Shown: positions 24,471 through 41,300 of the stretch, piece by piece | Layout of the letters: each line of letters begins with the position of its first letter | How positions within the stretch are numbered: position 1 is the stretch's first letter | Assembly (NCBI GenBank): GCA_050949565.1 | Contig: JBMNFY010000011.1 | Span: 32,001-96,000, forward strand | Reading direction: 5' to 3' | Length of the DNA: 64,000 nt | Origin: Kiritimatiellia bacterium | GTDB lineage: Bacteria > Verrucomicrobiota > Kiritimatiellia > RFP12 > UBA1067 | Notes under the pieces: model-generated | Seen by the model: only the letters and a program-made list of their open reading frames with translations | Told to the model about the DNA's origin: nothing | Databases searched by the model: none | Made by a program: the position numbers and the translations under genes

Positions 24471-24552
24471 CGATTTTGCACACACAGCCAAACTTTTGCA
24501 TGTTTTCTGCGAAAACAGTTGCATGGATGCCAAAACATGCTACTCTAGTTCC

Positions 24553-25887
24553 ATGATTATTCAATTTTCCGTTTCGAACTACCGGTGTTTTCGGGAGTTT
24601 CAGACGCTTAATCTGACGGCAAGCAGTGATAAGTCGTTACCTGACAACTGTATTGTCACATCGCTGGCGGGACGCCCCGAAAGACGTTGGCTCAAAGGCG
24701 CTGCGATTTATGGCGCGAACGCGAGCGGTAAGTCAACGGTTCTGAATGCTTTGAAGGCACTGGCAGGAATGGTCATCCACTCCGCAAAGATCACGGATGC
24801 CACGGAACCGATCAGGCAGATTGATCCATTTGCTCTGTGTCCCGATCATCCCGAAGTCCCTACAGCCTTCGGGGTTGTGTTTGTTGTCGATGACACGCGA
24901 TATGAATACCGAGTGGCGGCCACGCGCAAACGTATCTGGCACGAATCGTTGCGGGCGTTTCCCAGCGCTCGCGCACAGACGTGGTATGCTCGTGACTGGA
25001 GTCCGGAATCCGCCTCCTATGTCTGGACGCCGGAACGGCCGACGGGATTTCAGCGCGATCCTCAACTGGAGAGCTATACACTGAGCAACATGCTGTTCCT
25101 GTCAAAAGCGGTAGCCAACAACCGTGCAGAGTTGGAGCCGATCTTCCGTTGGTTTAAAGAAAATTTGGTTTTCTTGGACATGAGTGCGCGGAGCCACCTG
25201 TCACTTGACTACACACTCAATCAGATCGAGCAACAAGGCGAATATTGTGCGTCAATCAAAGAACTGTTACGCCATGCGGACATCGGCGTAACCGGTGTGG
25301 AAACAATTGAGGACGGTTCTCCTGAAAAGGTCGAAAAACTATTCGCTGATGTCCCCGTAGAAATCCAAAAGCGTTTTATCAAAGAAACGTGGTTACGCCC
25401 TTCGTTGATACACGCAGGAATGACGCCTGTTCAGATTCCTTTGCCATGGGAGACCGAATCGGCGGGCACTCGCCGTTTGTTTGCACTGGCGGGGCCGTGG
25501 CTGGATATTCTTAACCGAGGGAAGGTAGTCTGCATCGACGAGTTGGAGACCAGCATGCACCCGCACATGGTGCGGGAACTGCTACGGCTGTTTTTCGATC
25601 CAGCCGTTAATACCGGTGGTGCGCAAGTGATCTTCACGACCCACAATCCGCTCTTGCTCGACACAACCCTGTTGCGCCGCGACCAAGTGTGGTTCACCGA
25701 CAAGGATAACAAAGGCGCAGCTCACCTCTATCCCCTGACCGACTATAGTCCCCGCAAAGGCGAGTCGCTCGTCCGTGGCTACCTCTCCGGAAGGTACGGA
25801 GCGCTGCCATTCATCCCTGCAGGACTGCTCGATGCAATACCGTCGTACGAGGGGAAAGAGACAACTCCGGAGGTTCCCCATGACTGA
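24553..25887 (+). CDS. AAA_21 ATPase (RloA/AbiLi-like)
   Basis: MIIQFSVSNYRCF, AIYGANASGKS (Walker A), ESAGT, CIDELETSMHP (Walker B), QVIFTTH, RRDQVWF, YLSGRYGALP. Confidence 0.9.
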   Translation: MIIQFSVSNYRCFREFQTLNLTASSDKSLPDNCIVTSLAGRPERRWLKGAAIYGANASGKSTVLNALKALAGMVIHSAKITDATEPIRQIDPFALCPDHPEVPTAFGVVFVVDDTRYEYRVAATRKRIWHESLRAFPSARAQTWYARDWSPESASYVWTPERPTGFQRDPQLESYTLSNMLFLSKAVANNRAELEPIFRWFKENLVFLDMSARSHLSLDYTLNQIEQQGEYCASIKELLRHADIGVTGVETIEDGSPEKVEKLFADVPVEIQKRFIKETWLRPSLIHAGMTPVQIPLPWETESAGTRRLFALAGPWLDILNRGKVVCIDELETSMHPHMVRELLRLFFDPAVNTGGAQVIFTTHNPLLLDTTLLRRDQVWFTDKDNKGAAHLYPLTDYSPRKGESLVRGYLSGRYGALPFIPAGLLDAIPSYEGKETTPEVPHD

Positions 25888-26632
25888 CGGTTGCGGTTAT
25901 GATCCGGAATGGTGGAAAATACCCAAGGCGGCAAGTATCGCTCGAAAACGCCGGGCCACCACGTCCCGCGCAACCGCCAAGCCGGGGGACGCTTTTTTGA
26001 TTGTCACCGAAGGACAAGTAACAGAACCAGTCTACTTCAACTGTTTACTGAAAGATCTCCGGTTGCACACTGTTCACGTTAAGGTCATACCCGGTCACAC
26101 TCCCGATCCGCTTCGCGTGATTGATACTGCGGTCGAAGAGGTCAAGGCTCACCAGAAGAAATACAAGAACGGTTTGCTTGCGCAAGATGAGCCGTCAAAA
26201 TTCGATCATGTCTGGGTTGTCATCGACACTGACGTTGCGGTCCGGACGGGGTGTTGGAATGACGTGAAGCAACTCGCGGCTACACAAAAAGTAAAGCTTG
26301 CGCACTCAACACCCTGTTTCGAATACTGGTTGCTTTTGCATCTGTCGTACACGACCCGTGGAGATCTGGTGGATGGCGATGCCGCCAAGCGTGCGGTGGA
26401 AAAGGAGTTGGGCCGGGACTATTCGACAAACGAAAAAGTTGCTCGTGACGTCATGCCGCTATTCATGAATCACTGGCCAGAGGCGGTACGCCATGCGCAA
26501 AGAGTGCGTCAACATCATGCCGATGCCAACACCCCCGAGCCAGCCAATCCATCTACCGAGGTTGATCGCCTCGTCCAAGCGCTGAGTGATTCGAGTCGCT
26601 ACGGTCGACAGGCCGCAATCACAACGGAATAA
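25880..26632 (+). CDS. RloB-family protein (AbiLii-like, TOPRIM-like)
   Basis: LIVTEGQVTEPVYF, VWVVIDTD, STPCFEYWLLLH, NPSTEV; overlaps the ATPase stop. Confidence 0.9.
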   Translation: MTDGCGYDPEWWKIPKAASIARKRRATTSRATAKPGDAFLIVTEGQVTEPVYFNCLLKDLRLHTVHVKVIPGHTPDPLRVIDTAVEEVKAHQKKYKNGLLAQDEPSKFDHVWVVIDTDVAVRTGCWNDVKQLAATQKVKLAHSTPCFEYWLLLHLSYTTRGDLVDGDAAKRAVEKELGRDYSTNEKVARDVMPLFMNHWPEAVRHAQRVRQHHADANTPEPANPSTEVDRLVQALSDSSRYGRQAAITTE

Positions 26633-26720
26633 AAACAGCCGCGCAAGCCCCCTTCACACGAAAAGGGCGTAAAACCCGCTCCGTGCCTCATCTTGCTTTT
26701 GAGTGGTCGGAGAGTAACGC

Positions 26721-28103
26721 CTACACGGTATCGGGTATCTCGTAGCCGGACCGGTAGGATGCTTTGACCATAGCGGTAGCGGCGGGATTGTCGAAGGCGT
26801 TGGCTGCCGCGTCGTACTTCAGCGCCACATTCCCCAAGCGGTGGGCGATGTTGCCCATGTGGGCGACCATGTTGCTGGCATGGGCGACCGCGATGTCGGC
26901 GTTGGGTGCCTTGCGGCTCTTCACGCAGGCGATGAAGTTGCGGTAGTGCTCCAAATCGCCCGCCTGCCCGTGCATCTTTTCCACTACCTGACTGCTGCCC
27001 TTCTCCACCACAAATCCGCCGCCATGACGACCGAGGATCATCAGTTGCTTCTGTCCGTAGATCTCAATGCGCGTGGCGTTCTGCTTCCAGTCCGAAACCA
27101 GATGCTTCTTGCGCAGCACGTCGCTGCTCTTTTCCATGTAGGCGGGATATTGGCTCATGTCAAAGGTCATCGCGAACGTCGGAAACTCCCAAGCGACATT
27201 CAGGACATCGGGCACCTCGGAATCGTCCCCTTTGCGGGTGACAAACTGGCCGCCCAGCGCGCGCACGCTCGTGGGCAGGCCGGGGTCGCCCATCATCATC
27301 AGGGCCAGGTCGATCTGGTGGATACCGTCGTCGGTCATGTCGCCGCCGCAGTAGTCCCAGTAAAAATGCCAGCCGCCGCCACGCCAGATGCGCTGGTGAT
27401 AGGGCCGCAAGGCGGCGCGTCCCAGCCAGCGGTCCCAGTCGAAGCCTGCCGGTTGCTGGCCGGGGTCGCCCAGTTTGAAGGGCGAGCCGCTCTTGAGGTT
27501 GAAGACCTTGACCAGACCGATCTCGCCAAGCTGCCCGCTCTGCACAATCTCGCGCGCCCGAAGGTTGTACTCAGTCGAACGGTTCTGTGTGCCGACCTGC
27601 ACGACCCGCCGGTATTTGGCTGCGGCCTCGACCATCTTCCCGCTCTCCCACATGCAGAATGAATGCGGTTTCTCGACGTAGACATCCTTGCCGGCCTGAC
27701 ACGCCTGGATGGTCAGCGGTGCATGCCAGTTGTCGTGGGTTGCGACGATAACCGCGTCGATATCTTTAGCTTCCAGAATCTTGCGGTAGTCTTTCTCAAA
27801 GCGCGGTTTCTCCGTTTGCACCGGCTGAATGAATGTCCACATCTGATCCATGCGCTCATCGCTCAGATCAGAGATTGCCACGCAGTGGGCGCCGGCATCT
27901 TCAATCATCACGCGCAAGATGAAGCGACCGCGGCCGCCGCAACCGATAATTGCGACATTGACCCGTTCGTTCGCCCCGGCCACACGCTCCGCGCTCAACG
28001 CCTGCCACGCGCCGAGCCCCGCCGCCGCTGCGGACGCGCGCTTGATAAAGCCGCGCCGCGTGCTTGTCGCACCCTTCGTCAACAGTTCTGAATGGTCTTT
28101 CAT
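26721..28103 (-). CDS. Tat-exported Gfo/Idh/MocA oxidoreductase
   Basis: TRRGFIK twin-Arg; IGCGGRG, AGKDVYVEKP, QVGTQNRS, DDGIHQID. Confidence 0.92.
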   Translation of the reverse strand: MKDHSELLTKGATSTRRGFIKRASAAAAGLGAWQALSAERVAGANERVNVAIIGCGGRGRFILRVMIEDAGAHCVAISDLSDERMDQMWTFIQPVQTEKPRFEKDYRKILEAKDIDAVIVATHDNWHAPLTIQACQAGKDVYVEKPHSFCMWESGKMVEAAAKYRRVVQVGTQNRSTEYNLRAREIVQSGQLGEIGLVKVFNLKSGSPFKLGDPGQQPAGFDWDRWLGRAALRPYHQRIWRGGGWHFYWDYCGGDMTDDGIHQIDLALMMMGDPGLPTSVRALGGQFVTRKGDDSEVPDVLNVAWEFPTFAMTFDMSQYPAYMEKSSDVLRKKHLVSDWKQNATRIEIYGQKQLMILGRHGGGFVVEKGSSQVVEKMHGQAGDLEHYRNFIACVKSRKAPNADIAVAHASNMVAHMGNIAHRLGNVALKYDAAANAFDNPAATAMVKASYRSGYEIPDTV

Positions 28104-28105
28104 TC

Positions 28106-30307
28106 TTATTCCTCCTTTAACGGTTGAAGTGACGTCTCGCGGATGAAGATGTTGCGGAACTGCATAAGGGAGGGTGGGCTGTTCCAGACACCGTCCTGCA
28201 TGCTGCCGTGATGCTGTAGCGCGATCGGACCGCTTTCAGGCAGATTCGGGATGGCGACGCCAGGCAGGACGGCCTTGCCGTTGAGCAGCACGCGCACGGT
28301 GTTGCCGCGCATCGCGATCTCAAAGCGGTTCCATTTACCGACCGGATTGTCCGCCTTGAGCTTCGGCGTAACGCCAGCGCGCACCTCGGGCGGCATAGCG
28401 CGGTCAAGCCGCACTCCATACATTTCACCGGAGCCGATCGGCCAGCACCAGATGTTCACTTGGTATTTGCCGGAGCCGCGCAGAAAGACGCCGGAGTCCG
28501 AATCCGGAATCGCAAGCGCGATGACCTTGCCGTCCGGCCCTTTCTCATCGCTGCCGTCTGGCAGGATGGAGCGGGCATTGGGATTCGTGTAAGGCGTTTC
28601 CTTGATCCTCCAGTCAACGACCAAATCAAAGTCCTTAAACGCTTGCTGGCTCCACAGGTTCTTATCGCCCGCCGCTTCGCTGCGGGCATCGTAGTCGATC
28701 ACGCCATCGATCACCTTCCAGTGCCCGTTGTCGCCTTCGGGAACCTTCCAGCCACGCAGGTCAACGCCGTTGAACAGCGGCACAAAACCGTCGCCCTCGC
28801 GCGCGATCTCTTCGGGCTTGGGCTGAGTGGAGGGCAACTCTTTGATGCGGATGTTACGGAATTGGCATTCCGAGCCTTCGGACTCTAGCATGAGGTAGCC
28901 CTTGCGCGGCGAGGCCCCATAAGCGATGGTGACCTCTTTGCCGTTGACGCTGAGGCTGATGTCGCCGTTGATCGCCGCCACGCGGTAGTGGTTCCATTCC
29001 GGGGAAGGACGGGTACGCTCTTCAGCGGGGAAGCTGCGCTGACCGTTCGGCGAGATACGCCCGGCCACGGTCAGCTTCGCACCGTTGACGGCGAAAACAT
29101 CACCGTGTGTACTGTACCACTCATTCTTGCCCTTTACGTTGAATCCCGGATCAAGGACCTGTATCTCGATGCCGCGCGAGAAGGGCGAGCCGGCGACCGG
29201 CAGGGCATCGGCCCAGATGAAGAGACCGGAGTTGCCGCCTGACTTCATGTGTCGCCACTCGAAGTCGATGATAAAGTTCTCATACATTTTCTCGGTGCGC
29301 AGGGTGCCGATCGGATCACCGGTAGTGATGATCAGCCCATCGCGCACAAAAAATGTCTCCGGCGCGATGCTGCACGGCACCCAACCGGTGAGGTCGCGTC
29401 CGTTGAAGAGCGGCACGAAGCCGCTCTCCTCGCCTTTGAGCGGCACGCGCCACTGGCTACCGTCGTTGCGCTTCGCGCGCGCAGCCCATTCGGGCTTAGC
29501 TTGCTCGGGCGTCGCAGCCGGACGCGGCGTGTAGTAATCGTGCTGTTTGAGCGAGAAGACCGCCTCATCCGCTGAGAGGCGCACCAGAACATAGCCGATA
29601 TCGCCCCAGTGTCCGGTGGAGGGCAGGCACAGGGTCTGCACGCCGCTGGTCTCCTGCTGCAACCAATTGTGGTTGTGGCCGTACACATACCCCTTACAGG
29701 CGGGTGTAGCCGCGAGTAGCGTGGCGATGCCGGTCTCGTGAAGCGGATGGTGAGCACCAACGAAGACTGGTTTGCTGCGTCCGCTCAATACGGTCCGCAA
29801 CCAAGCGCGCTGCGCGTCGTCCAGACCGCCATGCACCGGGCCTTCGAGGCAGGAGTCCAACAGCACGAAATCGGCATGCGGCGTTTCAACCAACGACACC
29901 AGCCGATCCGGCACGAGTGACGCGGCGGCGCACTCCGGGAAAATGGCGAAGAACGGCGCGCGCCGGTCGTGGTTACCAAATGCGGCATGCCAGCGGACGC
30001 CAGCGTCGTCGAGCGGCTTGACCAGCGTCTTGAGCATGCGGTAGTCATTGGTGGCACCGCGATCGATCGAGAGGTCGCCATAGAACAGCACGTTGGCGGG
30101 ACGCGGGTTGAGCGCCAGCACCTCACGCACACAGCGCTCCAAACCCGCGCGCTGGTGCTGGTTTTTGTTGTCCATCGTCACATGTAAATCAGCGAAGAGC
30201 GCCACCAGATTCGGATCAAGCGGGATATCCGCGGCCAGCGCGGTAAGCGCGCCTAGCATAGCCAGTGCGACGGCCAGCAACCGGGTTTTCGACAACATCG
30301 TGTTCAT
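28106..30307 (-). CDS. Secreted fusion: calcineurin-like metallophosphoesterase plus 2x DUF1080 (3-keto-glycoside hydrolase-like)
   Basis: ADLH, GDL, GNHD, HH, GHNH; twice PLFNG.DL.GW...[ND]SG..I...WN; AGGAG RBS; start trimmed from 30400. Confidence 0.88.
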   Translation of the reverse strand: MNTMLSKTRLLAVALAMLGALTALAADIPLDPNLVALFADLHVTMDNKNQHQRAGLERCVREVLALNPRPANVLFYGDLSIDRGATNDYRMLKTLVKPLDDAGVRWHAAFGNHDRRAPFFAIFPECAAASLVPDRLVSLVETPHADFVLLDSCLEGPVHGGLDDAQRAWLRTVLSGRSKPVFVGAHHPLHETGIATLLAATPACKGYVYGHNHNWLQQETSGVQTLCLPSTGHWGDIGYVLVRLSADEAVFSLKQHDYYTPRPAATPEQAKPEWAARAKRNDGSQWRVPLKGEESGFVPLFNGRDLTGWVPCSIAPETFFVRDGLIITTGDPIGTLRTEKMYENFIIDFEWRHMKSGGNSGLFIWADALPVAGSPFSRGIEIQVLDPGFNVKGKNEWYSTHGDVFAVNGAKLTVAGRISPNGQRSFPAEERTRPSPEWNHYRVAAINGDISLSVNGKEVTIAYGASPRKGYLMLESEGSECQFRNIRIKELPSTQPKPEEIAREGDGFVPLFNGVDLRGWKVPEGDNGHWKVIDGVIDYDARSEAAGDKNLWSQQAFKDFDLVVDWRIKETPYTNPNARSILPDGSDEKGPDGKVIALAIPDSDSGVFLRGSGKYQVNIWCWPIGSGEMYGVRLDRAMPPEVRAGVTPKLKADNPVGKWNRFEIAMRGNTVRVLLNGKAVLPGVAIPNLPESGPIALQHHGSMQDGVWNSPPSLMQFRNIFIRETSLQPLKEE

Positions 30308-30327
30308 CAAGGTTCTCCTTATTCGGT

Positions 30328-30430
30328 CGAGGTTCTTGCAAAACCCCTCGTGGCATGGGCGTCCCGCCCATGAAACACGGGCAAGATGCCCGTGCCACAC
30401 TTGTAGGCAAGGGGTTTTGCAAGACCCTCG
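30328..30430. repeat. MITE/REPIN-like element: REP doublet inside 21-bp terminal inverted repeats
   Basis: CGAGGTTCTTGCAAAACCCCT ... AGGGGTTTTGCAAGACCCTCG (1 mismatch), enclosing the same REP unit as 8841. Confidence 0.8.
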
Positions 30431-30439
30431 GTCATTTGG

Positions 30440-31549
30440 TCATTCGGTGCGGCGCGCGGCCAGCACCTCGTCATAAACAGCCAACGTTTTTTCCACCATC
30501 TGATCAAGTGAAAAACGCGCGAGCGCATCTTCGCGAAGCCCGGTCAGCGTGTGGCGCGAGGCTTCGACCAGCCGGTCGGCAAGTTGGGCGGCGTCGCCCG
30601 GCTCGACCAGCCAGCCGTTGACCCCTTCGCGCACGATGTCAAGCGCTCCGCCGAAACGGGTGGCAATCACCGGGCAGTCCATCGCCAGCGCCTCCGCCAT
30701 CGAGCGGCCAAAGGCTTCGGGTTTGGCTTGATTGCCCGACACCAAAACATGGGCGCAGGCGTAGATTTCGGCAACCTGGCTCTGGCTGCCGGCAAACACC
30801 ACATGCTCATCGAGCCCCAGACGGCGCACCTGCTCATGCAGAGATTGTGCATAGTCGGCGCGTGCGGGCTCGACGCCACCGACGATCACGGTCTTGATGG
30901 TCGGCAGGCGTTCACGCACCGCAGCCGTGGCGTCGATCAGCACGTCGTATCCTTTGAGCTGCGTGATACGACCGACACCCAACACCACAAAACGGCCCTC
31001 CAACTCGAAGCGACGCCGAAAGTCGGCCATGAACGCCGTGTCGGTCCGTGCCGGATCGAAACGTTGAGGATCGATGCCGCGCGGAATCAAGCGGAGTCGC
31101 TCGTCCGGCGTACCGTAGTGGGCGCGGACAAAATCAAGAACAGCGGTACTGGGGCAGATCACACGCTCGCCCATGGTCATAATACGGCTATAGGCGCTCA
31201 CGCTATTGAAGCCGTGTACGGTAGAGACCACGGGCAAGCGCAACGAACGGTTGGCCAGACGTACGAGCCAGCCCGGCACCCGGCTGCGGAAATGGATGAG
31301 ATCCGGTTGGATCGCCACCAGCGCGCGTCGCAACGCTGCGGCGCGCGCTAGGGCCGTAAGGGGATTCTTCGACTTGACCTCCAGCGTCACATGCCGACCG
31401 CCCTCACGCTCCACGGTCGATACCATCCTTCCGCCGCTCGAGATTACGGTACTGACGTGGCCGCGCCGGACGAACTCGCGATTAAGCTCGACCGTGCCGC
31501 GTTCCACGCCGCCCTCGTCAAGCGCCGGAAGGATCTGGAGAATATGCAT
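30440..31549 (-). CDS. Glycosyltransferase family 4
   Basis: ILQILPAL..GGVE, STVHG, VGRITQLKG, EAFGRSMAEALA (EX7E). Confidence 0.92.
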   Translation of the reverse strand: MHILQILPALDEGGVERGTVELNREFVRRGHVSTVISSGGRMVSTVEREGGRHVTLEVKSKNPLTALARAAALRRALVAIQPDLIHFRSRVPGWLVRLANRSLRLPVVSTVHGFNSVSAYSRIMTMGERVICPSTAVLDFVRAHYGTPDERLRLIPRGIDPQRFDPARTDTAFMADFRRRFELEGRFVVLGVGRITQLKGYDVLIDATAAVRERLPTIKTVIVGGVEPARADYAQSLHEQVRRLGLDEHVVFAGSQSQVAEIYACAHVLVSGNQAKPEAFGRSMAEALAMDCPVIATRFGGALDIVREGVNGWLVEPGDAAQLADRLVEASRHTLTGLREDALARFSLDQMVEKTLAVYDEVLAARRTE

Positions 31550-31592
31550 GCAAGAACCCGCCGTTGCGGGGTTCTCGATCCAGCCGACGGAT

Positions 31593-32462
31593 CTATTTCA
31601 GATCGTTGAACATCTGAAACGCTTCGGCCGGTTTGAGCCCCTGGTGAACGACCGCCCCGACCGCCTGGATCATTGCCGCAGGCTTTTCCGACTGGAAGAC
31701 GTTGCGCCCCATATCCACACCGGCGGCACCGCTCTGGATCGCCCTGTAGGCCAAATCCAGCGCCTCCAGCTCGGGCAGCTTCTTGCCACCCGCGATCACG
31801 ATCGGCACCGGGCAGCAAGCCACGACTTTCTCAAAGCCTTCGGTGTAGTAGGTTTTCACGATGTTTGCGCCGTTCTCCGCGCACAGCCGCGAGGCCAGCC
31901 CGAAGTAACGCGCATCGCGCGCCATGTCCTTACCGACCGCCGTCACGCCCATCACCGGAATGCCATAGGCCTGACCCTCATCGACCGCCTGATAGAGGTT
32001 CGCCACGGTCTCAGCCTCGGTGGCGGCATCGCCGACCGACACCATCACCGCGATAGCCGAGGCGTTGACCTTCACCGCGTCCTGAATGTCGATCACCACG
32101 TTGTGGTTGAGTTCGGTCAGGATCGAGGTGCCAGCATCCGCGCGCAGACAAATCGGCTTGCGGCTAGTCGGCGGCACTAACGAACGCAGCACGCCGCGCG
32201 TACACATCAAGCAATCCGCGTGCTCAATCAGCGGCACAATGCTGAGATCGATGCGCTCGACGCCCGAGGTCGGCCCCATAATGAAACCGTGATCGAAAGC
32301 CAGCATCACGGTACGCCCCGTGGCCGGGTTGAATATCCGGCTCAAGCGATCCTTCATACCCCAGTCGAGATTATTCGACCCCTTGAGAAAAAAGCCGTCG
32401 GTACACTGTTCCACGCCGATCCCATACTCCTTACCGTCGCGGATATCATCTAAATCTGCCAT
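31593..32462 (-). CDS. lsrF: LsrF-type thiolase / class I aldolase (DhnA family)
   Basis: MADLDDIRDGK...LDWGMKDRLSRIFNP..GRTVMLAFDHG, VKTYY, PIVIAGGKKLPE, GVDMGRNVFQ closely resemble E. coli LsrF. Confidence 0.9.
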   Translation of the reverse strand: MADLDDIRDGKEYGIGVEQCTDGFFLKGSNNLDWGMKDRLSRIFNPATGRTVMLAFDHGFIMGPTSGVERIDLSIVPLIEHADCLMCTRGVLRSLVPPTSRKPICLRADAGTSILTELNHNVVIDIQDAVKVNASAIAVMVSVGDAATEAETVANLYQAVDEGQAYGIPVMGVTAVGKDMARDARYFGLASRLCAENGANIVKTYYTEGFEKVVACCPVPIVIAGGKKLPELEALDLAYRAIQSGAAGVDMGRNVFQSEKPAAMIQAVGAVVHQGLKPAEAFQMFNDLK

Positions 32463-32475
32463 AGTTCTCTCCTTT

Positions 32476-33111
32476 TCAACTTACTGCCTTGAGCGACTTC
32501 GCGAAGGACGCGAAAATGCAGGCCATCGAGGCCGCGCCGGCATCGCGCGGACCGATCGAACGCTCACCGAGGTTTTTCGCGCGCCCGAATTTGGCGCGCA
32601 TCTCGCAAGTGGCTTCCGCCCCTTGCTCTGCGGCTACGGCCGCCCGCTCGAACATCACGACGATGCCTTGAGAGTGGGCGGACAGCAATGCCTCGGTCGC
32701 GGGGATCAGCGCATCCATCAGTGTCTTATCGCCGATGCGGGCGCGCGTGACATACCCCAGTTCCTTGAGCCCGCCGTTGAAGACCTTAGCCAGCGCTGCG
32801 GCATCAAGTTCCGTCGCGCCTTCCAGCGCGGTATCGCTCATGCCCTGCAACCAAGAGCCGTACAGCGTGCTGGTCGAGCCGCAAGCCTCGTTTTGCAAGG
32901 CTTCGCTCAGCGACTTAAGGTAGCTTTTGAAGTCTGCGCCATCGGCCTTCTCCATCGCCCGGAAGGCCGTTACGATGGCCGTCCCGTGATCGCCGTCGCC
33001 GCCGGCGGCGGCGTCCAACTCGGAGAAGTGTTTTTCCTCCGCGCGGATCGCCTCGCCAGCCGTAGCGATCATCTCCTTGAACGTCTGAAGCGTCAGCATC
33101 ATGTCTGTCAC
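32476..33111 (-). CDS. dhaL: Dihydroxyacetone kinase-family L subunit
   Basis: LDAAAGGDGDHG, GDKTLMDALIP, AKFGRAKNLGERSIG..DAGA; start may be 33102. Confidence 0.88.
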   Translation of the reverse strand: MTDMMLTLQTFKEMIATAGEAIRAEEKHFSELDAAAGGDGDHGTAIVTAFRAMEKADGADFKSYLKSLSEALQNEACGSTSTLYGSWLQGMSDTALEGATELDAAALAKVFNGGLKELGYVTRARIGDKTLMDALIPATEALLSAHSQGIVVMFERAAVAAEQGAEATCEMRAKFGRAKNLGERSIGPRDAGAASMACIFASFAKSLKAVS

Positions 33112-33129
33112 TCGTTATAGGTTGCGGGC

Positions 33130-34128
33130 TCAGGCATTCCAGTACGGCGTACGGGCGGGCGCACTGAGATACTCCCGGTGATCCGCATCGAGCTTGCACA
33201 GGATCATCTGGAACCCGGCCATCTCCTGCACGGTCAGATACTCGCCGCAAGCGCCGGGCGTGACATTGATGCCCTTGTCGGCAAGAATCTGCGCAGCTTT
33301 ACGGTAGACGATCAGCATCTCCATCAGCGTGGTCGCGCCGACGCCGTTGATGATCAGCAACGCCGTATCGCCAGCCTTGACACCGGACGCCTGCATCAGC
33401 GGTGCGATCATACGGGCGGCCGTCTCGTCAGCCGTGAGAATCTTGGTGCGGCCACCGCCGGCTTCGCCGTGCTGGCCCATGCCGATCTCCATCTCGTCAT
33501 CCGGCAACACCGTGATCGGCTCGCCGTTTTGTGGATGCGTGCAGCCGGTCATGGCCACCGCCAGCGTCGCCACATGACGATTGAAGCGCTCGCCGATATC
33601 CATGATCTCGTCGAGGCTCTTACCGGCTTCCGCCGCCGCGCCAATCACCTTGTAAAGCGGGACACAGCCCCCCAGGCCGCGCCTCTCATCCGGGTCAGCA
33701 TCAACACCGGGGCCGATGTCGTCGTGCGTCACGATCTCGCGGACCTTAATGCCCTCTTTCTCGGCGTCACGCAACGCCTTGGAGGCGCTCATGCGGTCGC
33801 CGTCATGGTTCAGCGTAACCAGCACGATACCCGCATCGCGCTTGAGCAGACGCAGCGCTTCGAGCAACTTGGGCGCGCCCGGCGCGGCGAAAACGTCGCC
33901 CACCACACTCGCGTCCAACATGCCCTCGCCCACATACCCGCTGAGCGCGGGCTCGTGTCCGGAGCCACCCAGCGTGACGATCGCGACCTTGCTCTCGTCC
34001 TTCGGCGTGGCGCGCATCACGATCCTGTCGCTTACGAGCTTGACTTTGCCCTTGTAGCACGAGACCAGTCCTTCCAGCAATTCCTTGGTCAGATTCGCTG
34101 GATCATTAATAAACTTCTTCATCGCCAT
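33130..34128 (-). CDS. dhaK: Dihydroxyacetone kinase-family K subunit
   Basis: MKKFINDP, GGSGHEP..GYVGEGMLDA, RRGLGG, EIGMGQHGE. Confidence 0.9.
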   Translation of the reverse strand: MAMKKFINDPANLTKELLEGLVSCYKGKVKLVSDRIVMRATPKDESKVAIVTLGGSGHEPALSGYVGEGMLDASVVGDVFAAPGAPKLLEALRLLKRDAGIVLVTLNHDGDRMSASKALRDAEKEGIKVREIVTHDDIGPGVDADPDERRGLGGCVPLYKVIGAAAEAGKSLDEIMDIGERFNRHVATLAVAMTGCTHPQNGEPITVLPDDEMEIGMGQHGEAGGGRTKILTADETAARMIAPLMQASGVKAGDTALLIINGVGATTLMEMLIVYRKAAQILADKGINVTPGACGEYLTVQEMAGFQMILCKLDADHREYLSAPARTPYWNA

Positions 34129-34140
34129 GTTTAAACTCCC

Positions 34141-34449
34141 TTACACCAATTGTATGTACTCGACCGCCACGTCGCCGTCATACACGAACGCGATTTTCAT
34201 CGTCGGGAACGTGGTGATCGGCCAGAGCACGTTCTTGCCTTGCAACGCCTTTTCGATGTCATCGACGACGTAGGCCACATGCGCCTCTCCCTGAATCGCC
34301 GCCGCCATCGGACTATCCGGCTCGAAGTAGAGGAACTCGATCTTGTACGGATGCTTGCTGGCGTCGGTGATCCACACCTTCAGCGGCTCGATAAAGGACA
34401 TGTCGTCCAGTTTCTCAAACACCGGAACACCTGTGTGATTGTACGTCAT
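34141..34449 (-). CDS. Small VOC/glyoxalase-like hypothetical protein
   Basis: YNHTGVP, KIEFL, HVAYVVDDIEKAL, VEYIQ pattern; GGGAGA RBS. Confidence 0.7.
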   Translation of the reverse strand: MTYNHTGVPVFEKLDDMSFIEPLKVWITDASKHPYKIEFLYFEPDSPMAAAIQGEAHVAYVVDDIEKALQGKNVLWPITTFPTMKIAFVYDGDVAVEYIQLV

Positions 34450-34492
34450 TTTGTTTCTCCCTCTCTTTAACGTTTTCGTCTTGTTTCAAACC

Positions 34493-35221
34493 TTACAGCG
34501 CGGCACCCGGCACCGTGAAACGCAGCCCTGCACTGTCATGGAAAGTCGCGTACTCGGTGACAATCGCCCCATCCTTGCCGGCCTGCATGAAGTGCCAGGT
34601 CTCAGGACCGGCCAGCTTATGCACCTTGCCGTCCGCCTCCCACTTCTCGACGTGCACGCACTTGAGGTGCGGAATCTGCAACTTGGACAGCATGGCCTTG
34701 GCCTCGGGGAACTGATCGAGGTTCGGCTCGCCAACCTCGCTGAACCCGTACACATAACCGTTGCGCACCTGCCAGCTCTCGATCTTGCAACGGATCGTCT
34801 TGCCGTCCGCGTCCTTCGTAGGCAGATGGCGATGCTCGGCGATGCTCTGTCCGGGCAGCAGATAGATGTCGTGTCCGAAATACCCCTCAGCCTTCTCATT
34901 GCACCAAATCACGCCACCCATACCGAGCGCCGTAAAATCGCCCTTACCGAAATCAATCGCCCAGAACGGTCCATCCGGACGCTTCAACTCGGCATAGACA
35001 GGCACATTGAACTTCTCCATCAAATCGTAATACGCCTGCTTGGCCTTGGCCACATCGAATTTCCCGTCCTTGTAAAAATCCTCGTTCCTCATTTGTGTTG
35101 TCTCCTTTTTGTATCCGCAACACGGGCTCGTGCAGCCCGCAGTTAAACCCATCAGTCCTGCACCCACTCCGACAGCCACCAGGCCGGTCAACACTGAGCG
35201 CATCGAAATCATCTGTTTCAT
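34493..35221 (-). CDS. Cupin, D-lyxose ketol-isomerase-like, with predicted lipoprotein signal
   Basis: LTAG-C lipobox; IDFGKGDF, LLPGQSIAEHRH, KIESW, PETWHFMQAG..GAIVTEYAT. Confidence 0.72.
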   Translation of the reverse strand: MKQMISMRSVLTGLVAVGVGAGLMGLTAGCTSPCCGYKKETTQMRNEDFYKDGKFDVAKAKQAYYDLMEKFNVPVYAELKRPDGPFWAIDFGKGDFTALGMGGVIWCNEKAEGYFGHDIYLLPGQSIAEHRHLPTKDADGKTIRCKIESWQVRNGYVYGFSEVGEPNLDQFPEAKAMLSKLQIPHLKCVHVEKWEADGKVHKLAGPETWHFMQAGKDGAIVTEYATFHDSAGLRFTVPGAAL

Positions 35222-35352
35222 GGTCGTTTCCTTTCCTCCTGGCCGCACCAGTTGCGATGCCGCCACCTGTTAGACATATTGAATCGTATTGGGTCCCAGT
35301 TTAGCCCAATCCGCCGCCCGTGTAAATCCGGAATCTCGAAAGCACAGCCGCG

Positions 35353-38300
35353 TTATTTCAGCAGAATCAAGGTGCCGGGCGACTTCGACTTCACCACGCC
35401 CGTCCCGCTGAACACCTCGGGGTGCGTCAATGCGCCGTACTGACCACCGACATAGCGCACGCCGTTGATCACCAGATCGCCCACAACGAACTTGCCCGGA
35501 TAGTCCAACTCCACACGCGCGCCGGTCTCGATCGTGAGTGACGACTCGTCGCTGGACAACGCTTGCAGTGCCGCGATTTCAGAGACTCCGCTGATCCGTA
35601 TATCATCGATCAACGAGCACGGATCGCCCTGCGGAATCAACTCCGTAGACCCCTGAAACTTCAGGATATGCGTGCCGGCCGTAACATGGACCAGCGGTAT
35701 CGTCGCCGTGAGGTAGCCGCGTTCCGTCACGGTCACGCTGCCGCACACCGCGCCCGCCAATTGCACGTAAATCACATGATTCGTGTACCAAATCCCGGCG
35801 TTATAGCGCGGACAGTAGGCGAAGGTCAGGGTATAGGTGCCGTCCACGGGGAAGTTGAGCGTCACCTGAATGGAACCGTTTCTGCGCACGTAGGCGGTCT
35901 GGACGCCCTCCGGCGCGTATGCCAACGCAGTGGCCGCGAAATAACTGCCGTTACGCTGATAGCCGGCATCATCGGTATTGAACGTCCAGCCCGGGCAGCC
36001 GGTCGCCGCCGCGCCGCGCCGGTCCTTCGCTCCCTGCTCGCCCCCCTCCGGCAGCAACGGGTTGCTTTCGAAGCCCGCATACGGCACGTCGACCGTGACA
36101 TAGGTCCGTGCGCCGCGAACCGCGAAAAGGCCTTCGCTGACGGTAAGTGCACCGGTAAACGGCGTGCTGTTTTCCGGGCAATCTGTCAGGGCGAATGTTC
36201 CCTGCCCGAGCTTCCGCCACGCTCCCTCCAGCGTGTTGACCGCCAGATCGGCCTCGGTCACGCGCAGGTTTGTGCCCGCCGCGTCCTCGCTCACCAGCCG
36301 GTGCAGCGTCTGCCGGTGCTGCACTTCGCCGAGTTCGTTGGTCGCGCCGACAACCTCGAAGGCCGCGCCTGCCGAAACCGTGACCGCGCTTTCGGGCGCG
36401 AGCAGATTGACCAGTGCGTTTGACGGACTGGCCAGAGTGAAGTCGAGACGCAACGTGCCGTTGGAGACCAGCGTCGGCCCCGTATAGGTCATGGGCGCCG
36501 CGATTTTGAGTATACCGGTGCCCTGCTTGACCAATGCACCGGTCGAATCCGGTGCCTGCGCGAAACCCTTGCCGCGGATCGCAACCTCATAGTCCAGCGT
36601 ATCGATAATCGCACCGCCATTGCAGATCAGCGGCGCGGCCGACGCTTCGGACAACGCTATGAAAAAGTCTGTGTTGCGGGCAGCTTCGACCACCGTGCCG
36701 TTGAAGAGCAGCGGACTCAGGCTGAGGTGCTGATCGGTGGCATTGGGCACGCCGAGCACCGGCAGCCGCAGACGACCGCCATCCAGCGACAGTTGCGTGG
36801 CGTTCCCTTCCACGAAACGGAGTTCATTGCCCACCGTCACGAATGCGTCATTGGTGATGGAGACCACGGCATTCGAACCGGCGATGTCCAGCCAGTCCGC
36901 CCTGAAGTCACAGCCTTCGTCAAACACCACGCTGCAACCGTCCGCAGTGTCCCAGCCGCACGAGAGCTTGCGGAGGCGGCCCCGTACATTCGACCAGCGG
37001 TGCAGCGCAGCGCCGCTGCCGGGCAGCGCATCGCCCGCCAGATAGAGATCGACGTAGCCAAAGTACGCGCCGTCCGCGTTGACGACCGTCAACGGCACGC
37101 CATCGTCACGGCCATCCGGGAAACACGACAAGTCATCGTGAGGCTGAATCACAAAGCCGGCGAACGCATGGGCGCGCGGGGTTTCGATGCCGCGCGTGAA
37201 GGTGACCGTCGAGCCAGACGGCACGACAAAGCGCGTCGAGCGGTCGTTGGCATAGATCTGGTTCGGCACATAAATCATGTTGCCGAATGTGCCGCCCGCG
37301 CGCGGCTCGAAACGTCCGCCAGTGGCGAAAGAGAGATCTCCGCCGCCGATCGCATCGACAGCATCGGCCGCTACCACACCGCCGCCCACATGCAGGCCAC
37401 CCGCCAGCGAAAACGGGCCTTGCAAATCGAGTCGGCCGTCGCCGGTTTTGACCAGCGTCACGGGACCGTCAGGCCGATCGCCCAATGCGGTGCCCGGCAC
37501 GGTATTGGTCTCATCCGTCGGCACGCGAAGCGTCAGGCTCACCGGATACGCGGCCGTCGCATTCGTCACCTTGCCAAAACCGCCGCCATCCGCTTGTAGG
37601 CCGCCGTTGAGACGGACGTCCAACGCTCCAACATCCAGCGTCGCGTCAGCCGCCAGCCTGACGGGATCCGCGACCTGCTTGACCGTCGTGCCAATGGCAA
37701 AGCGGAAGCTGCCGGCGGTCACGCCGTACTCACTCTCACTCTGCGATGCCAGTGCGGCCGTCGGGAACGTCAGCGCACCACCCTGCGTGCTATAGGCACC
37801 GGGCAGGAACGAAATCGCACCTTCACCGTCATTCAGCGTGCCCGCCCACTCGCCGACGCCCTCTTTGCCGGCTTCGATGTAGCGGTCTCCCTCACGAAAG
37901 CCAAAGGTCACTAGCGCGTATTCGCCCGGTCCCAGCGCGACCGGTTCCGGCAAACGGTGGAAGCGATACCCGCCTTCGAGCGGATAGGTCTCCGCAGCAC
38001 CCAAGGCGGTCACGGCCAACGGCACCCCACCGGTGCGCGCGAAAATGGCAACCTTTTTGAAGTGCCCGTTCCCATCCCCAGCGCTGTCGTACGCACCCAG
38101 ATGCGTGACGGTGATCAGCCGGTTGACCTGAAAGTCTGTACGCAGTGAGACTGAGACACCGCCTGCACCGGTGTTATGAAGCGCTGGGTCGGCGGCATAC
38201 GCCTGGAAAAAGCGCGGTGCTGCGTCGTTGAAAGCCAGCGAGCCCTGCTGCACCGCCAGTCCGCCGAGCGTGGCGGCACCGGTCACGACAGCGCCGCCGT

Positions 38301-41300
38301 CTCCGGTTTTGGTCAGCGTCTGCACACTGACCACGTCAGCGGCCAGTGTAACTTGGGAGCCGTCATCGACCGTCACAGCCGGAGATGAACCGCTGAAATC
38401 CAACACACCGCTCTCAATGGTGCGCTCGGCCCCCGCAACGGACAACGTTCCAATGTTTTGCAGGCCGCCCTGCAGCGAGATGGTCTGTGCCGTCGCAACA
38501 TCGTTTGTGATAATGGCGGCTGCACCAACACCTCCAGCGCGGATACCGCCCTGCCAATTGGTGGCAGTGGGCCAGTCGGCTTCTGCTGCGGTACCGATCC
38601 ACACGCCATCTGCGGTCTGCTTGATCGGCCCATCAGCCAACAACACCTGCCGGGCGTGCGCCGCATAGACCTCGCGCGGATCATGCGCGTAGGCGGTCAG
38701 CACCTGCTCGCCGTTGTGCTCGCTGTCGTCCCCCAACCGATAGAGGGCACGCGCCACGGCCAACTCCTTGAGGCAGTGGTTGCGCTCAATGTCAGCCTGC
38801 GCGTTTGAAAAGTCGGTAATCAGCGGCGCTGTCGCGGCATTCGGCAACGCATAGCCCTGCACGAGCGGTAACAAGGCGGCAAGCCACATGGCGGCAGAAC
38901 CGCTGTCAAAGCTTTCGCTTGCCAACGCGACCGCACGGTAATGGGAGAAGCTCGACGCGGCGTTGAACTGGATGGCCTTGGCAAGCAACGGCGAGACGCC
39001 TCCCGGATCCAACGTGCGTCCGAGCGCGATCAGATAGCTATCCATCATGCTCACGGAACGTCCATATTGGCCCATGCCGCGGAAATTCCAACCGGCATCC
39101 CATGGATTCGAGCTTACGACATCAACCAGCGTCTGCGCACCGACCGGATCGCCCAGCAACCCCAGAACGTGAGCGTAGATCAGCCGATCCGCCGGACTGC
39201 CTGCACTGGCATACGCCGTGCGCAACATCGGCAGCGCGGTGGCGGTGTCGGCCAGCACCGTGGGCAACGTGGCATAGTTATCGACCAAGCCTGTAACAGC
39301 CAGTTGAATCACATCTTGGGAGAGCGGGAAGCTGTCCGTGTTATTGGCGTAAGCAGCATCAATAATGCCCACACCAACCAGATGCGCTTGCAGCGCCGCG
39401 ATGTCTACCGAACGCACGTCGACACCGGCCTGAACGGCCAGCGCCGCGGCGTAACCGGCCGCATAGCCTTGGTTCTGCACGTCGCGTTGCATGCGCAGCA
39501 GCGGCATGGCGTCGCGATGCGCGCTGATGCCAAGCCCTGTCACCAGCAGACCGTCCAGCGTCTTGGGCAACAACGCGCGGAACGGCAGGCTTGCCGTCCA
39601 AGAGGACGTGCCGGGGTCGTAGACGAAGAAGAGGTCATGCACCGTGAATCCGTGCGAGTCAAAGTTGCTGGTCGGCCGCACGATCGTGTCGGGCCATGTG
39701 CGGTTGTTCAAGATGTCGATCGGCGTGACAGTCACCGCGCCCACCAGACGACGCCGCTCACGCGTCGCGGGATTCTGTGCGGCATCCCAGGTCGACGCAG
39801 GCATACTCTTGCGCGCGCGCCGCGCGAAGAAAAACACGTCGGTCACATCGGCATCGCCCACGAAACCAATATCGTTGTTGAGATAGCTGTTGCCCAGCAC
39901 ATGCCGTGCCCAGCCCGCGCCCTGCACGGCAGGTTCACTGCCCGTGATGAACTCGGTCTGAGCACCGGCGGCTGCGGCCACATCGGCGTTGCCGGTCGAA
40001 TCGATCACCGTCTGCGCACGGATGACGCCGCGCTGGCCGTCGGGCAACACGACCACCACGCCCTTCACCGCATCGCCGTCGACCACCGCCCCGTTCGCGA
40101 GCGTCCCGTAAAGCACGCGCACGTCGGCGGCACGGCACGCCTGCCTATACCACTCTGCCTTGGCGGTGTAGAGCGCGGCACCGGTCGCCTTCCAGCCGGG
40201 GTCAACATCATTCGCCGTAAACCCGCACGCATTGCCGTAGTAGTACGCGCCGATGCGCCCGTCGGTCTGCACACCGCCCATCGTGTAGAGCACATCCAGC
40301 ACCAGCGTGTCGGCACCGGCGCGGCCGGCACTGATCGCGGCCGGCGCACCCGCCGTGCCCGCCCCGACCACCAAGACCCCGCACGTCGCCAGCACCGGCA
40401 GCGAACGTTCACCCTCCTCGACCACACCCAGCGCGTTCGTGGCCACCGGCGGCAGTCCTGCCAGCGCTTCACGCACCTCTTCGGTCCCCGGCACAACGCC
40501 AACATCCGGCGGCAGCGAGACACCGGCGAGCGGTGCGCGAGCCAGCGCCTCGACGGCCGCGACCGCACCAATGCGATCGGCCAGAGACATCATGCGCACC
40601 GGATGCTGCAGGTCGGCCGCCAGAGAACGCGGCAGGTCGGCCCGCACGCCCAGCACGTAGAGATACGGCACGTCTTGAGGCCGGAATGCGTCCAGATCCA
40701 GCGCATTGGCACCGGGCCACGCCGTGGCCTGCTCGGACGCCACACCGACGATGTGATCCGGCGGCAACCACGAGAGACGGTCCGCCTGATCCAAGCAGGT
40801 CTTGGTCCACGTCAGATCACGCGCTGTCTGCTCGATCTCCAAAAGCTCCAGCATGCCGCCCGTTTGCATGGGCACGGTGAAACTGCAACGGTAAACGCGT
40901 CCATCCACACTCGTCGGCATGCCTGCCGGCGCCTCCACACCACCGATCGTGACCGGATAGGTATGGCTCGGCAGGGCCTCGACACTCAGCCCCGGCGCGG
41001 AGGGTGCGTTCGTAGCATCTGCGATCACAATCCGCGAGAACGAGTAATCACCAGGCGTAAAGTCGGTCTTGACCGCCCCCGCGCAACGGGCGGGCCACGC
41101 GCCCTCGGTCGCGTCGATGACGACCCGCGCCGTCACCGCTTGGCGTCCCGCGCGGTTCGCCAGCACCACGCCAGCAGGGTTTCCATCGGCATCCCGCAGG
41201 ACATCGCACACCGGCGCACCGCCCAGAAAAGGGACCCCCTGCTCTTCCAACGTAAGGTCCAGCGTGCGCTTCAGCGTCAGCGGCGTGACGTGGCAACAAC

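Follow-up and report, generated by a model that had tools for sequence, protein, structure and literature searches.

A conserved cupin-VOC-DhaK-DhaL-LsrF gene cassette of Kiritimatiellia that may encode a non-canonical, Lsr-like cleavage route

LsrF is otherwise known only as the last enzyme in the destruction of autoinducer-2 (AI-2) by enteric bacteria. What, then, could be the role of an LsrF homologue in a bacterium of the Kiritimatiellia, where it is encoded directly beside a DhaK-DhaL kinase and two putative isomerases, a cupin and a VOC protein? We analysed the 64,000-nucleotide stretch of DNA that carries these genes (GenBank assembly GCA_050949565.1, contig JBMNFY010000011.1, positions 32,001 to 96,000; hereafter the window, numbered from its first letter), together with the rest of the genome and related loci from other organisms. 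The terminal enzyme of the cassette is known, and the surrounding pathway is unstudied and conserved across phyla. The literature that we searched contains no description of an LsrF-DhaKL module. The nearest published statement, in the excerpt of Bradley et al., 2018 (PMC6084841), is that a Bacteroidetes lsrF homologue is associated with gut residence, for which degradation of AI-2 was suggested. We consider it slightly better than an even bet (probability about 0.55) that the five genes form one operon for an Lsr-like, non-canonical cleavage route of a small keto-sugar.

A five-gene unit shared by two phyla

Open reading frame (ORF) calls on the window give five co-oriented genes on the minus strand, encoding a cupin, a VOC protein, DhaK, DhaL and LsrF. 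They are closely packed, with gaps of 43, 12, 18 and 13 nt along the cassette from the cupin to LsrF, in line with the 12-43 nt stated in a preliminary description of the locus.

The five genes are one real unit, conserved well above chance, and the cassette recurs across Kiritimatiellia genomes and metagenomes. A scan for the cupin in one genome per species gave 20 loci, 17 of which have all five genes in the same order; of the others, two run into a contig end behind the second or fourth gene, and L029 consists of the cupin alone. When metagenomes were scanned with the VOC profile, all five genes were present at 27 of 77 loci. LsrF itself scores over its cut-off in 35 of the 301 genomes of a phylum-wide sample and is patchily distributed: one family has it in 15 of 15 genomes and the family of the window in 8 of 12, and the remaining occurrences are scattered. 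Regions were fetched for 20 of these 35 genomes, and half of them (10/20) contain the full cassette. The rest include a 2.8-kb contig with DhaK-DhaL-LsrF-cupin (L040), two partial loci (L042 and L048, the latter with matches to LsrF and DhaL only), four loci where LsrF is in other gene company (L032, L033, L034 and L051), and two (L035 and L036) with an LsrF-DhaL-DhaK arrangement, a distant DhaKL (33-36% identity) and neither VOC nor cupin. The flanks of 14 Kiritimatiellia loci contain no recurring transporter, regulator or dehydrogenase, and consist of housekeeping genes, carbohydrate-active enzymes and assorted regulators. Single flanking genes, namely a rhamnosidase or fucosidase at two loci, a Gfo/Idh/MocA protein with a multihaem cytochrome at one and an FGE-domain protein at another, were given no weight because these families are common in such genomes.

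Related clusters are present in Bacteroidota. In Parabacteroides distasonis (plasmid 3, NZ_OY725748.1) the order is cupin, a 1328-aa protein with NPCBM, HZS_alpha and FGE-sulfatase domains, CcsA, VOC, DhaK, DhaL and LsrF, followed by a Mala_s_1-like beta-propeller, an MFS transporter and a GH130 protein. In Aureibacter tunicatorum (pAT4) a butyrate kinase is encoded 3 kb upstream of VOC, DhaK, DhaL and LsrF, after which come a c-type cytochrome/beta-propeller protein, a RidA/chorismatase-like protein, the cupin, a Mala_s_1-like propeller and an HZS_alpha protein. Both clusters, which are annotated and unstudied, share with the window the VOC-DhaK-DhaL-LsrF order, a cupin homologue and the DhaK motifs described below, whereas none of their additions (periplasmic redox-type proteins, butyrate kinase, MFS transporter, GH130) adjoins the cassette in the window. 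The five-gene core is common to both phyla, and the Bacteroidota versions are extended by periplasmic redox-type proteins.

VOC-DhaK-DhaL-LsrF is one of three kinds of LsrF context that we encountered. Another is the canonical lsrK-lsrR-ABC-lsrF arrangement, as in Lacticaseibacillus paracasei, and a further one, exemplified by Shinella and Sagittula, combines LsrF with an FGGY kinase and a protein that is a short-chain dehydrogenase/reductase (SDR), class II aldolase-like or glycerol-3-phosphate-dehydrogenase-like; the verrucomicrobial loci L032-L036 have an arrangement related to the latter. On Shinella p1 (L131) and Sagittula p3 (L132), lsrF is annotated either beside an FGGY kinase and a 651-aa 'SDR family oxidoreductase' or beside two proteins, one glycerol-3-phosphate-dehydrogenase-like and one of the class II aldolase family (397 aa); sugar ABC transporters accompany it. 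These two contexts look catabolic and not AI-2-related. At L035 (5138-12051), and at L036 from the same genus, the genes encode a TIM-barrel protein, a bifunctional class II aldolase/SDR fusion, LsrF, DhaL, DhaK, an ABM-domain protein, a second TIM-barrel (isomerase-like) protein and, finally, a molybdopterin oxidoreductase, which suggests an oxidative route to an LsrF substrate. This cluster is a non-orthologous parallel to the cassette, in that an ABM-domain protein (the LsrG fold) and a TIM-barrel isomerase-like protein follow LsrF-DhaL-DhaK; the ABM protein falls below the NCBIfam LsrG model at 1e-5.

The encoded proteins and their missing partners

The Lsr pathway of E. coli and Salmonella (LsrK, LsrG, LsrF) is the closest characterised system. 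According to the preliminary description the window contains no lsrK, lsrG, lsrABCD or lsrR, and Pfam scans of 25 ORFs of at least 120 aa, plus the ORFs scanned before those, agree with this: no FGGY kinase, ABM, ABC transporter or SorC domain was found among them. The genome assembly (4.66 Mb in 21 contigs) is 92.4% complete and was searched in six frames; being incomplete, it cannot prove absence. None of lsrK, lsrG and dhaM, for which a genome search had been proposed beforehand, was found in it. The best of 12 FGGY-type matches in the genome reached 224 bits against an LsrK cut-off of 528, and none lies within the window; LsrG gave no match at E <= 0.001, and neither DhaM (TIGR02364) nor EIIA-Man (PF03610) was matched. 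Neither LuxS nor MtnA/DrdI was detected in the genome. No ABC transporter or SorC regulator is encoded among the scanned window ORFs or in the flanks of the 14 related loci (LsrB and LsrR were not searched for genome-wide). In the phylum sample, 4 of the 35 LsrF-positive genomes have LuxS and 31 do not, and 10 of 14 LuxS-positive genomes are without LsrF, so that there is no co-occurrence link between the two.

The last gene of the cassette (31593..32462, minus strand) encodes a protein of 289 residues with an LsrF-type class I aldolase fold, a candidate coenzyme A (CoA)-dependent thiolase. It matches the Pfam family DeoC (DeoC/LacD aldolase, 2.9e-19) and structure 3gkf (1.4e-107), scores 453 bits against NF006081 (3-hydroxy-5-phosphonooxypentane-2,4-dione thiolase; equivalog cut-off 297) and remains far under the aldolase and ADH-synthase models. 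The gene is present in a single copy in the genome. Identity of the protein is highest with LsrF of P. distasonis (72.6%) and decreases over A. tunicatorum (66.1%), Shinella sp. H4-D48 (61.9%) and E. coli (58.2%) to L. paracasei (51.0%), which has a canonical lsr operon. Judged by its sequence, it is an orthologue-grade LsrF. The thiolase activity and mechanism of LsrF were reportedly described by Marques in 2014.

The active site of LsrF consists of the Schiff-base residue Lys203 with Asp57, His58, Asp251 and M252, and of a phosphate site formed by Gly226, Gly227, Gly253 and Arg254; the enzyme has the fold and catalytic set of class I aldolases, and Asp251 is LsrF-specific, being Ala in related aldolases (Diaz et al., 2009, PMC2728841, in the available portion of the article). 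All nine residues (K203, D57, H58, D251, M252, G226, G227, G253 and R254) are invariant in 25 of 25 aligned LsrFs, comprising 15 VOC-DhaKL-linked, 3 canonical and 7 'oxidative-context' sequences. Only three positions set the VOC-DhaKL-linked proteins apart from both other groups (F61I, V105C and I256V), a signature position being one at which at least 14 of these 15 sequences agree and the canonical and 'oxidative-context' sequences differ. Two of the three adjoin named active-site residues in sequence. In the LsrF tree, the 15 VOC-DhaKL-linked sequences form one clade (support 99/98), which we refer to as 'V-type' and in which Bacteroidota and Verrucomicrobiota are interleaved. E. coli LsrF groups with those of Shinella and Sagittula (100/99), and the placement of two Bacillota sequences is unsure because of their long branches.

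DhaK-type kinases act on hydroxymethyl-ketone ends, like that of dihydroxyacetone (DHA), or on glyceraldehyde-like ends. The cassette encodes the substrate-binding subunit DhaK (33130..34128, minus strand, 332 aa) and the nucleotide-binding subunit DhaL (32476..33111, minus strand, 211 aa). DhaK matches Pfam Dak1 at 4.6e-99 and L. lactis DhaK (3ct4) at 9.6e-65, and DhaL matches Pfam Dak2 at 1.6e-38 and E. coli DhaL (2btd) at 7.2e-18; both stay below their equivalog cut-offs (TIGR02363, 298 bits against 406.25; TIGR02365, 112.9 bits against 138.3). With the DhaKLM systems of E. coli (1oi2/2btd) and L. lactis (3ct4/3cr3) the cassette shares the Dak1 and Dak2 subunits and the catalytic motifs, which align throughout: the GGSGHEP histidine, the GD aspartate, the hemiaminal histidine (HGE) and the Mg-binding D..GDxDHG of DhaL. 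It differs in the sub-equivalog scores, in motifs of the form LNHxGD and GMGQHGE instead of NYTGD and GIHGE in the aligned E. coli chain, and in a genome without detected DhaM or EIIA-Man. The variant residues NHDGD and GQHGE that were pointed out in the preliminary description are real (LNHDGD and GMGQHGEAGG in the window), and LNHxGD and GMGQHGE are kept in 14 of 14 cassette-type DhaKs from both phyla. These motifs co-vary with the type of LsrF; the LsrF-linked DhaKs of L035 and L036 have NNYAGD and GMGLHGE. The cassette DhaK is the only Dak1 protein of the genome. As neither DhaM nor EIIA-Man was found, DhaKL presumably takes its phosphate directly from ATP.

The first gene encodes the cupin (34493..35221, minus strand), with 242 aa counted from the ATG at 35221; its reading frame stays open further upstream, to a GTG at 35266. 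The protein has no Pfam match even at E <= 10, including to the Lyx_isomer profile (PF07385), and no NCBIfam match, but it matches D-lyxose isomerases by sequence (phmmer; 2y0o at 3e-9 and 7nzo at 3.3e-6). In an AlphaFold model based on an alignment of 25 sequences, residues 41-242 mostly have a predicted local distance difference test (pLDDT) score above 90, and residues 1-40 are disordered. Foldseek superimposes the model on 2y0o and 7nzo with TMt values of 0.82-0.86 (rmsd 2.6-3.1 Å, 24-26% identity), and L-ribose isomerases rank next among the fold matches. Residues E129, H130, H132, E148 and H210 are invariant in the 25 sequences and correspond to a metal site of the type His-x-His, Glu, His. 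The cupin thus shares the fold and the EHxH...E...H residues of the D-lyxose/D-mannose isomerases of B. subtilis (YdaE, 2y0o) and Thermofilum (7nzo), and differs from them in its low sequence identity, the lack of a match to Lyx_isomer, and an export signal.

Characterised D-lyxose/D-mannose isomerases are, as far as known, cytoplasmic. The N-terminus of the cupin, in contrast, reads as a lipoprotein signal, with a hydrophobic stretch followed by LTAGC and a Cys-rich linker. Export-type signals (lipoprotein, Sec or twin-arginine) were identified in 29 of 31 cupin homologues overall: 18 of 20 homologues from genome records have one, and so do all those of the phylum sample (11/11). Most of the latter carry a lipobox; the signal is of the Sec type in L043 and L047 and of the twin-arginine type in L040. 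The homologue from Aureibacter also has a signal. From its own N-terminus and the signals of its homologues, the cupin is predicted to be exported and lipid-anchored, and the first enzyme of the operon would then act outside the cytoplasm. The fold bears out the earlier assignment of the cupin as an isomerase, which had missed the lipoprotein signal and hence the export.

The second gene (34141..34449, minus strand) encodes a VOC protein of 102 residues, a metalloenzyme candidate with a glyoxalase I/methylmalonyl-CoA epimerase fold. Its match to Pfam Glyoxalase_4 is weak (19.9 bits, below the 27-bit cut-off), but the sequence profile finds 3hdp and 2qh0, the Ni-glyoxalase I of Clostridium acetobutylicum, at 1.5e-6. 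The predicted model (pLDDT 96.1) has the paired beta-alpha-beta-beta-beta fold, with 2qh0/3hdp as top matches (TMq 0.71, probability 1.00) and methylmalonyl-CoA epimerases next (TMq 0.54-0.68). Across 22 sequences E38, E43, H57 and E97 never vary and H5 hardly does; the four metal ligands (His, Glu, His, Glu) of this type of VOC enzyme may be among them. At 102 residues the protein is shorter than glyoxalase I and the epimerases (~130). It belongs to a separate family of 'hypothetical' proteins. The ESM Atlas yielded family-level leads only.

A candidate cleavage route and its competitors

We hypothesize that the five proteins act on a small keto-sugar in four steps. The exported cupin would isomerise an aldose-type substrate to a 2-ketose outside the cytoplasm, creating a HOCH2-C(=O)- end. 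After uptake, the VOC protein would shift a proton next to a carbonyl, in an LsrG-like keto/hydroxy swap or an epimerisation. The split DhaK/DhaL kinase would then phosphorylate the hydroxymethyl-ketone end, presumably with ATP. Finally, LsrF may form a Schiff base via its conserved lysine and cleave a 3-hydroxy-2,4-diketone phosphate with CoA, yielding dihydroxyacetone phosphate (DHAP) and an acyl-CoA, which would be acetyl-CoA if the substrate is an isomer of 4,5-dihydroxy-2,3-pentanedione (DPD), the AI-2 precursor. The order of the steps, the phosphoryl donor and the substrate are part of this proposal, as is the chemistry of each step. Because the cassette lacks a dehydrogenase, the substrate must already hold a second carbonyl. 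DPD or one of its isomers would qualify, as would a sugar that had been oxidised prior to reaching the cupin.

The logic of kinase, isomerase and C-C cleavage to DHAP is shared with the Lsr pathway, as is LsrF with its nine active-site residues. The cassette departs from that pathway in having a split DhaK/DhaL kinase and not the FGGY-family LsrK, in the VOC protein and exported cupin that stand where the ABM-fold LsrG would be, in the lack of LsrACDB and LsrR among the scanned window ORFs and of a detectable LuxS in the genome, and in the separate clade of its LsrF. Replacement of LsrK by DhaKL and of LsrG by the VOC protein, the cupin or both, as put forward in the preliminary description, is a reasonable scheme, given the conserved unit, the canonical genes that were not found, the orthologue-grade LsrF and the sole Dak1 kinase; the data do not link it to AI-2 specifically. 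Two outcomes that would have refuted the scheme according to that description, canonical lsrK or lsrG elsewhere in the genome and a cluster without conservation, were checked for and not encountered. Similar chemistry is reportedly found in the DHAP shunt for 5-deoxyribose and methylthioribose (DrdK, DrdI and DrdA; Beaudoin, 2018, is said to describe it). That shunt likewise obtains DHAP from a small deoxy-sugar by a kinase, an isomerase and C-C cleavage, but the enzyme families differ at all three steps, the cassette would place isomerase before kinase, and no MtnA/DrdI was found.

Evidence that the unit is expressed comes from environmental RNA. Biogas, digester, landfill and bioreactor samples from 16 studies (20 runs) contain the stretch 30400-35400, and six of these runs, which are metatranscriptomic, hold 85-99% of its sampled words. 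For four of the six, contigs were placed on the window and their depth was taken as the mean per contig. In run X16, one contig of 4917 nt (30403-35319) has a depth of 23, with others at 3.5-8 downstream and 5.3 upstream. In X17, a contig at 31933-35924 has a depth of 24.2 (others 4-8), and in X18 contigs at 31826-34652 and 34639-35275 have depths of 14.5 and 9.8 (others 3-6). Uncovered bins in X17 and X18 were not counted as evidence. Run X15 gave 45.5 at 30403-33522, 111 at 33493-33799, 24.8 at 33770-36500 and 14.6 at 25500-30363. The raised depth over the cassette in three runs argues for transcription rather than plain carry-over of DNA, and the cassette appears to be expressed in biogas reactors.

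Several observations weigh against a single operon with a single route. RNA libraries may include DNA, and genes covered by one contig need not share a transcript. The two cupins of L026 and L028 begin at the mature domain and lack a signal peptide. L038 has VOC-DhaK-DhaL-LsrF with no cupin nearby. At ten or more metagenome loci (at least L093, L095, L097, L105, L107, L117, L119, L121, L122 and L124, with 3-10 kb of sequence on the far side, tblastn at 1e-4) the cupin-VOC pair, or VOC alone, occurs without DhaK, DhaL or LsrF, and the pair may therefore have a job of its own, independent of LsrF. The VOC proteins of these stand-alone loci are only 40-54% identical to that of the window, and their neighbours are housekeeping genes or, in one group, a large MFS sugar-transporter fusion immediately upstream. 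Furthermore, export of the first enzyme leaves uptake unexplained, as no dedicated transporter is encoded, and the need for a second carbonyl, which comes from our chemical reasoning, has no established natural aldose to satisfy it. The sequence of the V-type LsrF is compatible with thiolase as well as aldolase activity, and the activities of all cassette proteins are predictions.

At the metagenome loci L103, L105, L107 and L108, where the cupin-VOC pair has neither DhaKL nor LsrF beside it, a protein of 675-774 aa precedes the pair and a DEAD-box helicase and an RRM protein follow it; at L108 the preceding protein combines an MFS sugar transporter with a FUSC_2-like domain.

As to the substrate of the proposed keto-sugar route, we prefer to AI-2 itself an oxidised or deoxy sugar that is made or modified in the periplasm and resembles DPD or is one of its isomers. 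This preference is based on the cupin being exported, the presence of periplasmic redox proteins in the Bacteroidota versions, the butyrate-kinase neighbour in Aureibacter, the signature changes beside the LsrF active site, and the lack of a tie to LuxS. An undescribed pathway for a rare or deoxy-sugar, mentioned as the second option in the preliminary description, accordingly fits the data better than its AI-2 route.

Quenching or scavenging of AI-2 nevertheless has to be considered, although we regard it as unlikely. The cupin (in the periplasm), the VOC protein (in the cytoplasm) or both would isomerise exogenous DPD, DhaKL would make the phosphorylated forms P-DPD or P-HPD, and LsrF would release DHAP and acetyl-CoA. 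An orthologue-grade LsrF with nine of nine active-site residues would suit this scheme, and so would the VOC fold, which in glyoxalase I serves the same kind of keto/hydroxy shift. By our reasoning, the C3=O/C4-OH/C5-OH end of DPD mimics glyceraldehyde and the end of HPD mimics DHA, both of which are DhaK-type substrates. The habitats in which the stretch was found are dense mixed communities, and AI-2 degradation has been proposed for the Bacteroidetes lsrF homologue tied to gut residence (Bradley et al., 2018, PMC6084841, as excerpted). However, DPD is not an aldose, whereas the nearest relatives of the exported cupin are aldose-ketose isomerases. The distribution of LuxS described above speaks against AI-2 as the specific substrate, and neither an LsrB-type transporter nor an LsrR-type regulator travels with the cassette. 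The periplasmic haem, beta-propeller, FGE-like and butyrate-kinase-type genes beside the Bacteroidota versions would be unexpected in AI-2 degradation, the occurrence of the cupin-VOC pair without DhaKL and LsrF also disfavours it, and the changes near the LsrF active site hint at a different acyl or side group.

We speculate on one more specific form of the favoured keto-sugar route, which we think improbable in its full detail: a redox-neutral, CoA-dependent sugar route of which the cassette is the cytoplasmic half. A sugar, for instance a 6-deoxyhexose or a pentose from sulfated or fucose/rhamnose-rich glycans, would be oxidised at a ring carbon by exported flavo- or haem enzymes. The exported cupin would turn the resulting aldos-ulose into a 2,4-diulose, the VOC protein would set the stereocentre between the two carbonyls, and DhaKL would phosphorylate C1. 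V-type LsrF would then release DHAP and a non-acetyl acyl-CoA (such as lactyl-, glycolyl- or glyceroyl-CoA), from which Ptb/Buk-type enzymes could gain ATP. The F61I and I256V changes bring in smaller residues, and the acyl pocket would widen if they line it.

Comparably improbable is a route by which a rare aldose (for example D-lyxose, D-mannose or L-ribose) is degraded via a ketose 1-phosphate and an aldolase step. Here the cupin would make a 2-ketose, DhaKL a ketose 1-phosphate and VOC its epimer, which LsrF, as a plain class I aldolase, would cleave to DHAP and an aldehyde. The similarity of the cupin in fold and sequence to D-lyxose/D-mannose isomerases, and then to L-ribose isomerases, is consistent with this route, as is the HOCH2-CO end that a 2-ketose supplies and that kinases of the DhaK family require; the fold and catalytic residues of LsrF are those of class I aldolases, and no added oxidation is needed. 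The invariance of the LsrF-specific Asp251, where related aldolases have Ala, points the other way, and LsrF scores far over the LsrF cut-off and far under the aldolase and ADH-synthase models. In addition, the aldehyde calls for enzymes outside the cassette. Reaction products of LsrF were not detected, according to the available portion of Diaz et al., 2009 (PMC2728841).

Highly improbable, finally, is a role in disposing of the 5-deoxyribose or methylthioribose that MtnN makes from radical-SAM and polyamine by-products, through an isomerase, DhaKL and cleavage in analogy to the DHAP shunt: the genome does have one MtnN gene (148 bits against a cut-off of 73.8) and, with neither an MtnA/DrdI-type isomerase nor LuxS found, leaves these sugars without a known fate, 5-deoxyribulose would have a DHA-like end, and the cassette lies without a regulator amid housekeeping genes in several genomes, but an exported isomerase is ill-suited to an intracellular by-product, thiolytic cleavage requires oxidation at C4, for which no dehydrogenase is encoded in the cassette, the genome contains two genes of the class II aldolase family, and LsrF is patchy (35/301 genomes) although radical-SAM chemistry is widespread.

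What sets the locus apart is a distinct LsrF clade locked to a different kinase and different isomerases in Kiritimatiellia and Bacteroidota, including a cultured human-gut species. If the substrate were AI-2, abundant anaerobes would be unrecognised quenchers of interspecies signalling, an idea already raised for gut Bacteroidetes in the excerpt of Bradley et al., 2018 (PMC6084841). If it is another keto-sugar, the cassette would represent a new catabolic route yielding DHAP and an acyl-CoA. In either case, a function would be assigned to four protein families that are now 'hypothetical' or mis-named.

Control signals and neighbouring genes

A promoter-like site (35298..35326, minus strand) with TTTACA, a 17-nt spacer and TAAACT is located upstream of the cupin gene. 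It is a consensus match only, and the scan for promoters and terminators was not above chance (5 promoter-like sites against 2.7 +/- 1.7 in shuffled sequences). The upper end of the X16 contig, at 35319, lies within this site. No terminator-like site was found between lsrF and the next gene, and a search of 30200-35500 against Rfam gave two chance-level matches only, with no riboswitch or leader.

Between a family 4 glycosyltransferase (GT4) gene and the gene next to it, the window contains a 100-nt hairpin with a perfect stem (30329-30429; -72.9 kcal/mol over 111 nt, z = -9.3). The genome contains the motif of its arm 135 times, compared to 0 for the reversed control, with many inverted pairs ~77 nt apart and others at ~1.6 kb. 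The hairpin has no Rfam match, and RNA contigs pile up on it (summed depth 316-2669) and continue into many different flanks. It looks like a family of miniature inverted-repeat transposable elements derived from an insertion sequence element. Breaks of RNA contigs at 30326-30400 coincide with this repeat and are therefore uninformative on transcript ends.

The genes next to the cassette were given little weight, since they are kept only in the closest relatives. Directly upstream (35353-42075, minus strand) is a gene for an exported 2240-aa protein with FAD_oxidored matches in four stretches and an autotransporter-type PATR repeat, which is retained in L010 and L011 only. Downstream (26721-30400, minus strand), two genes 2 nt apart encode a Gfo/Idh/MocA oxidoreductase with a twin-arginine signal and an exported metallophosphoesterase with two 3-keto-disaccharide-hydrolase (DUF1080) domains; the GT4 gene is also located downstream of the cassette, on the same strand. 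Further along, at 24355-26632 on the plus strand, the gene for an AAA_21/AAA_15 ATPase (510-aa ORF) overlaps that for an RloB-like protein (285 aa), a pair of the abortive-infection or defence type.

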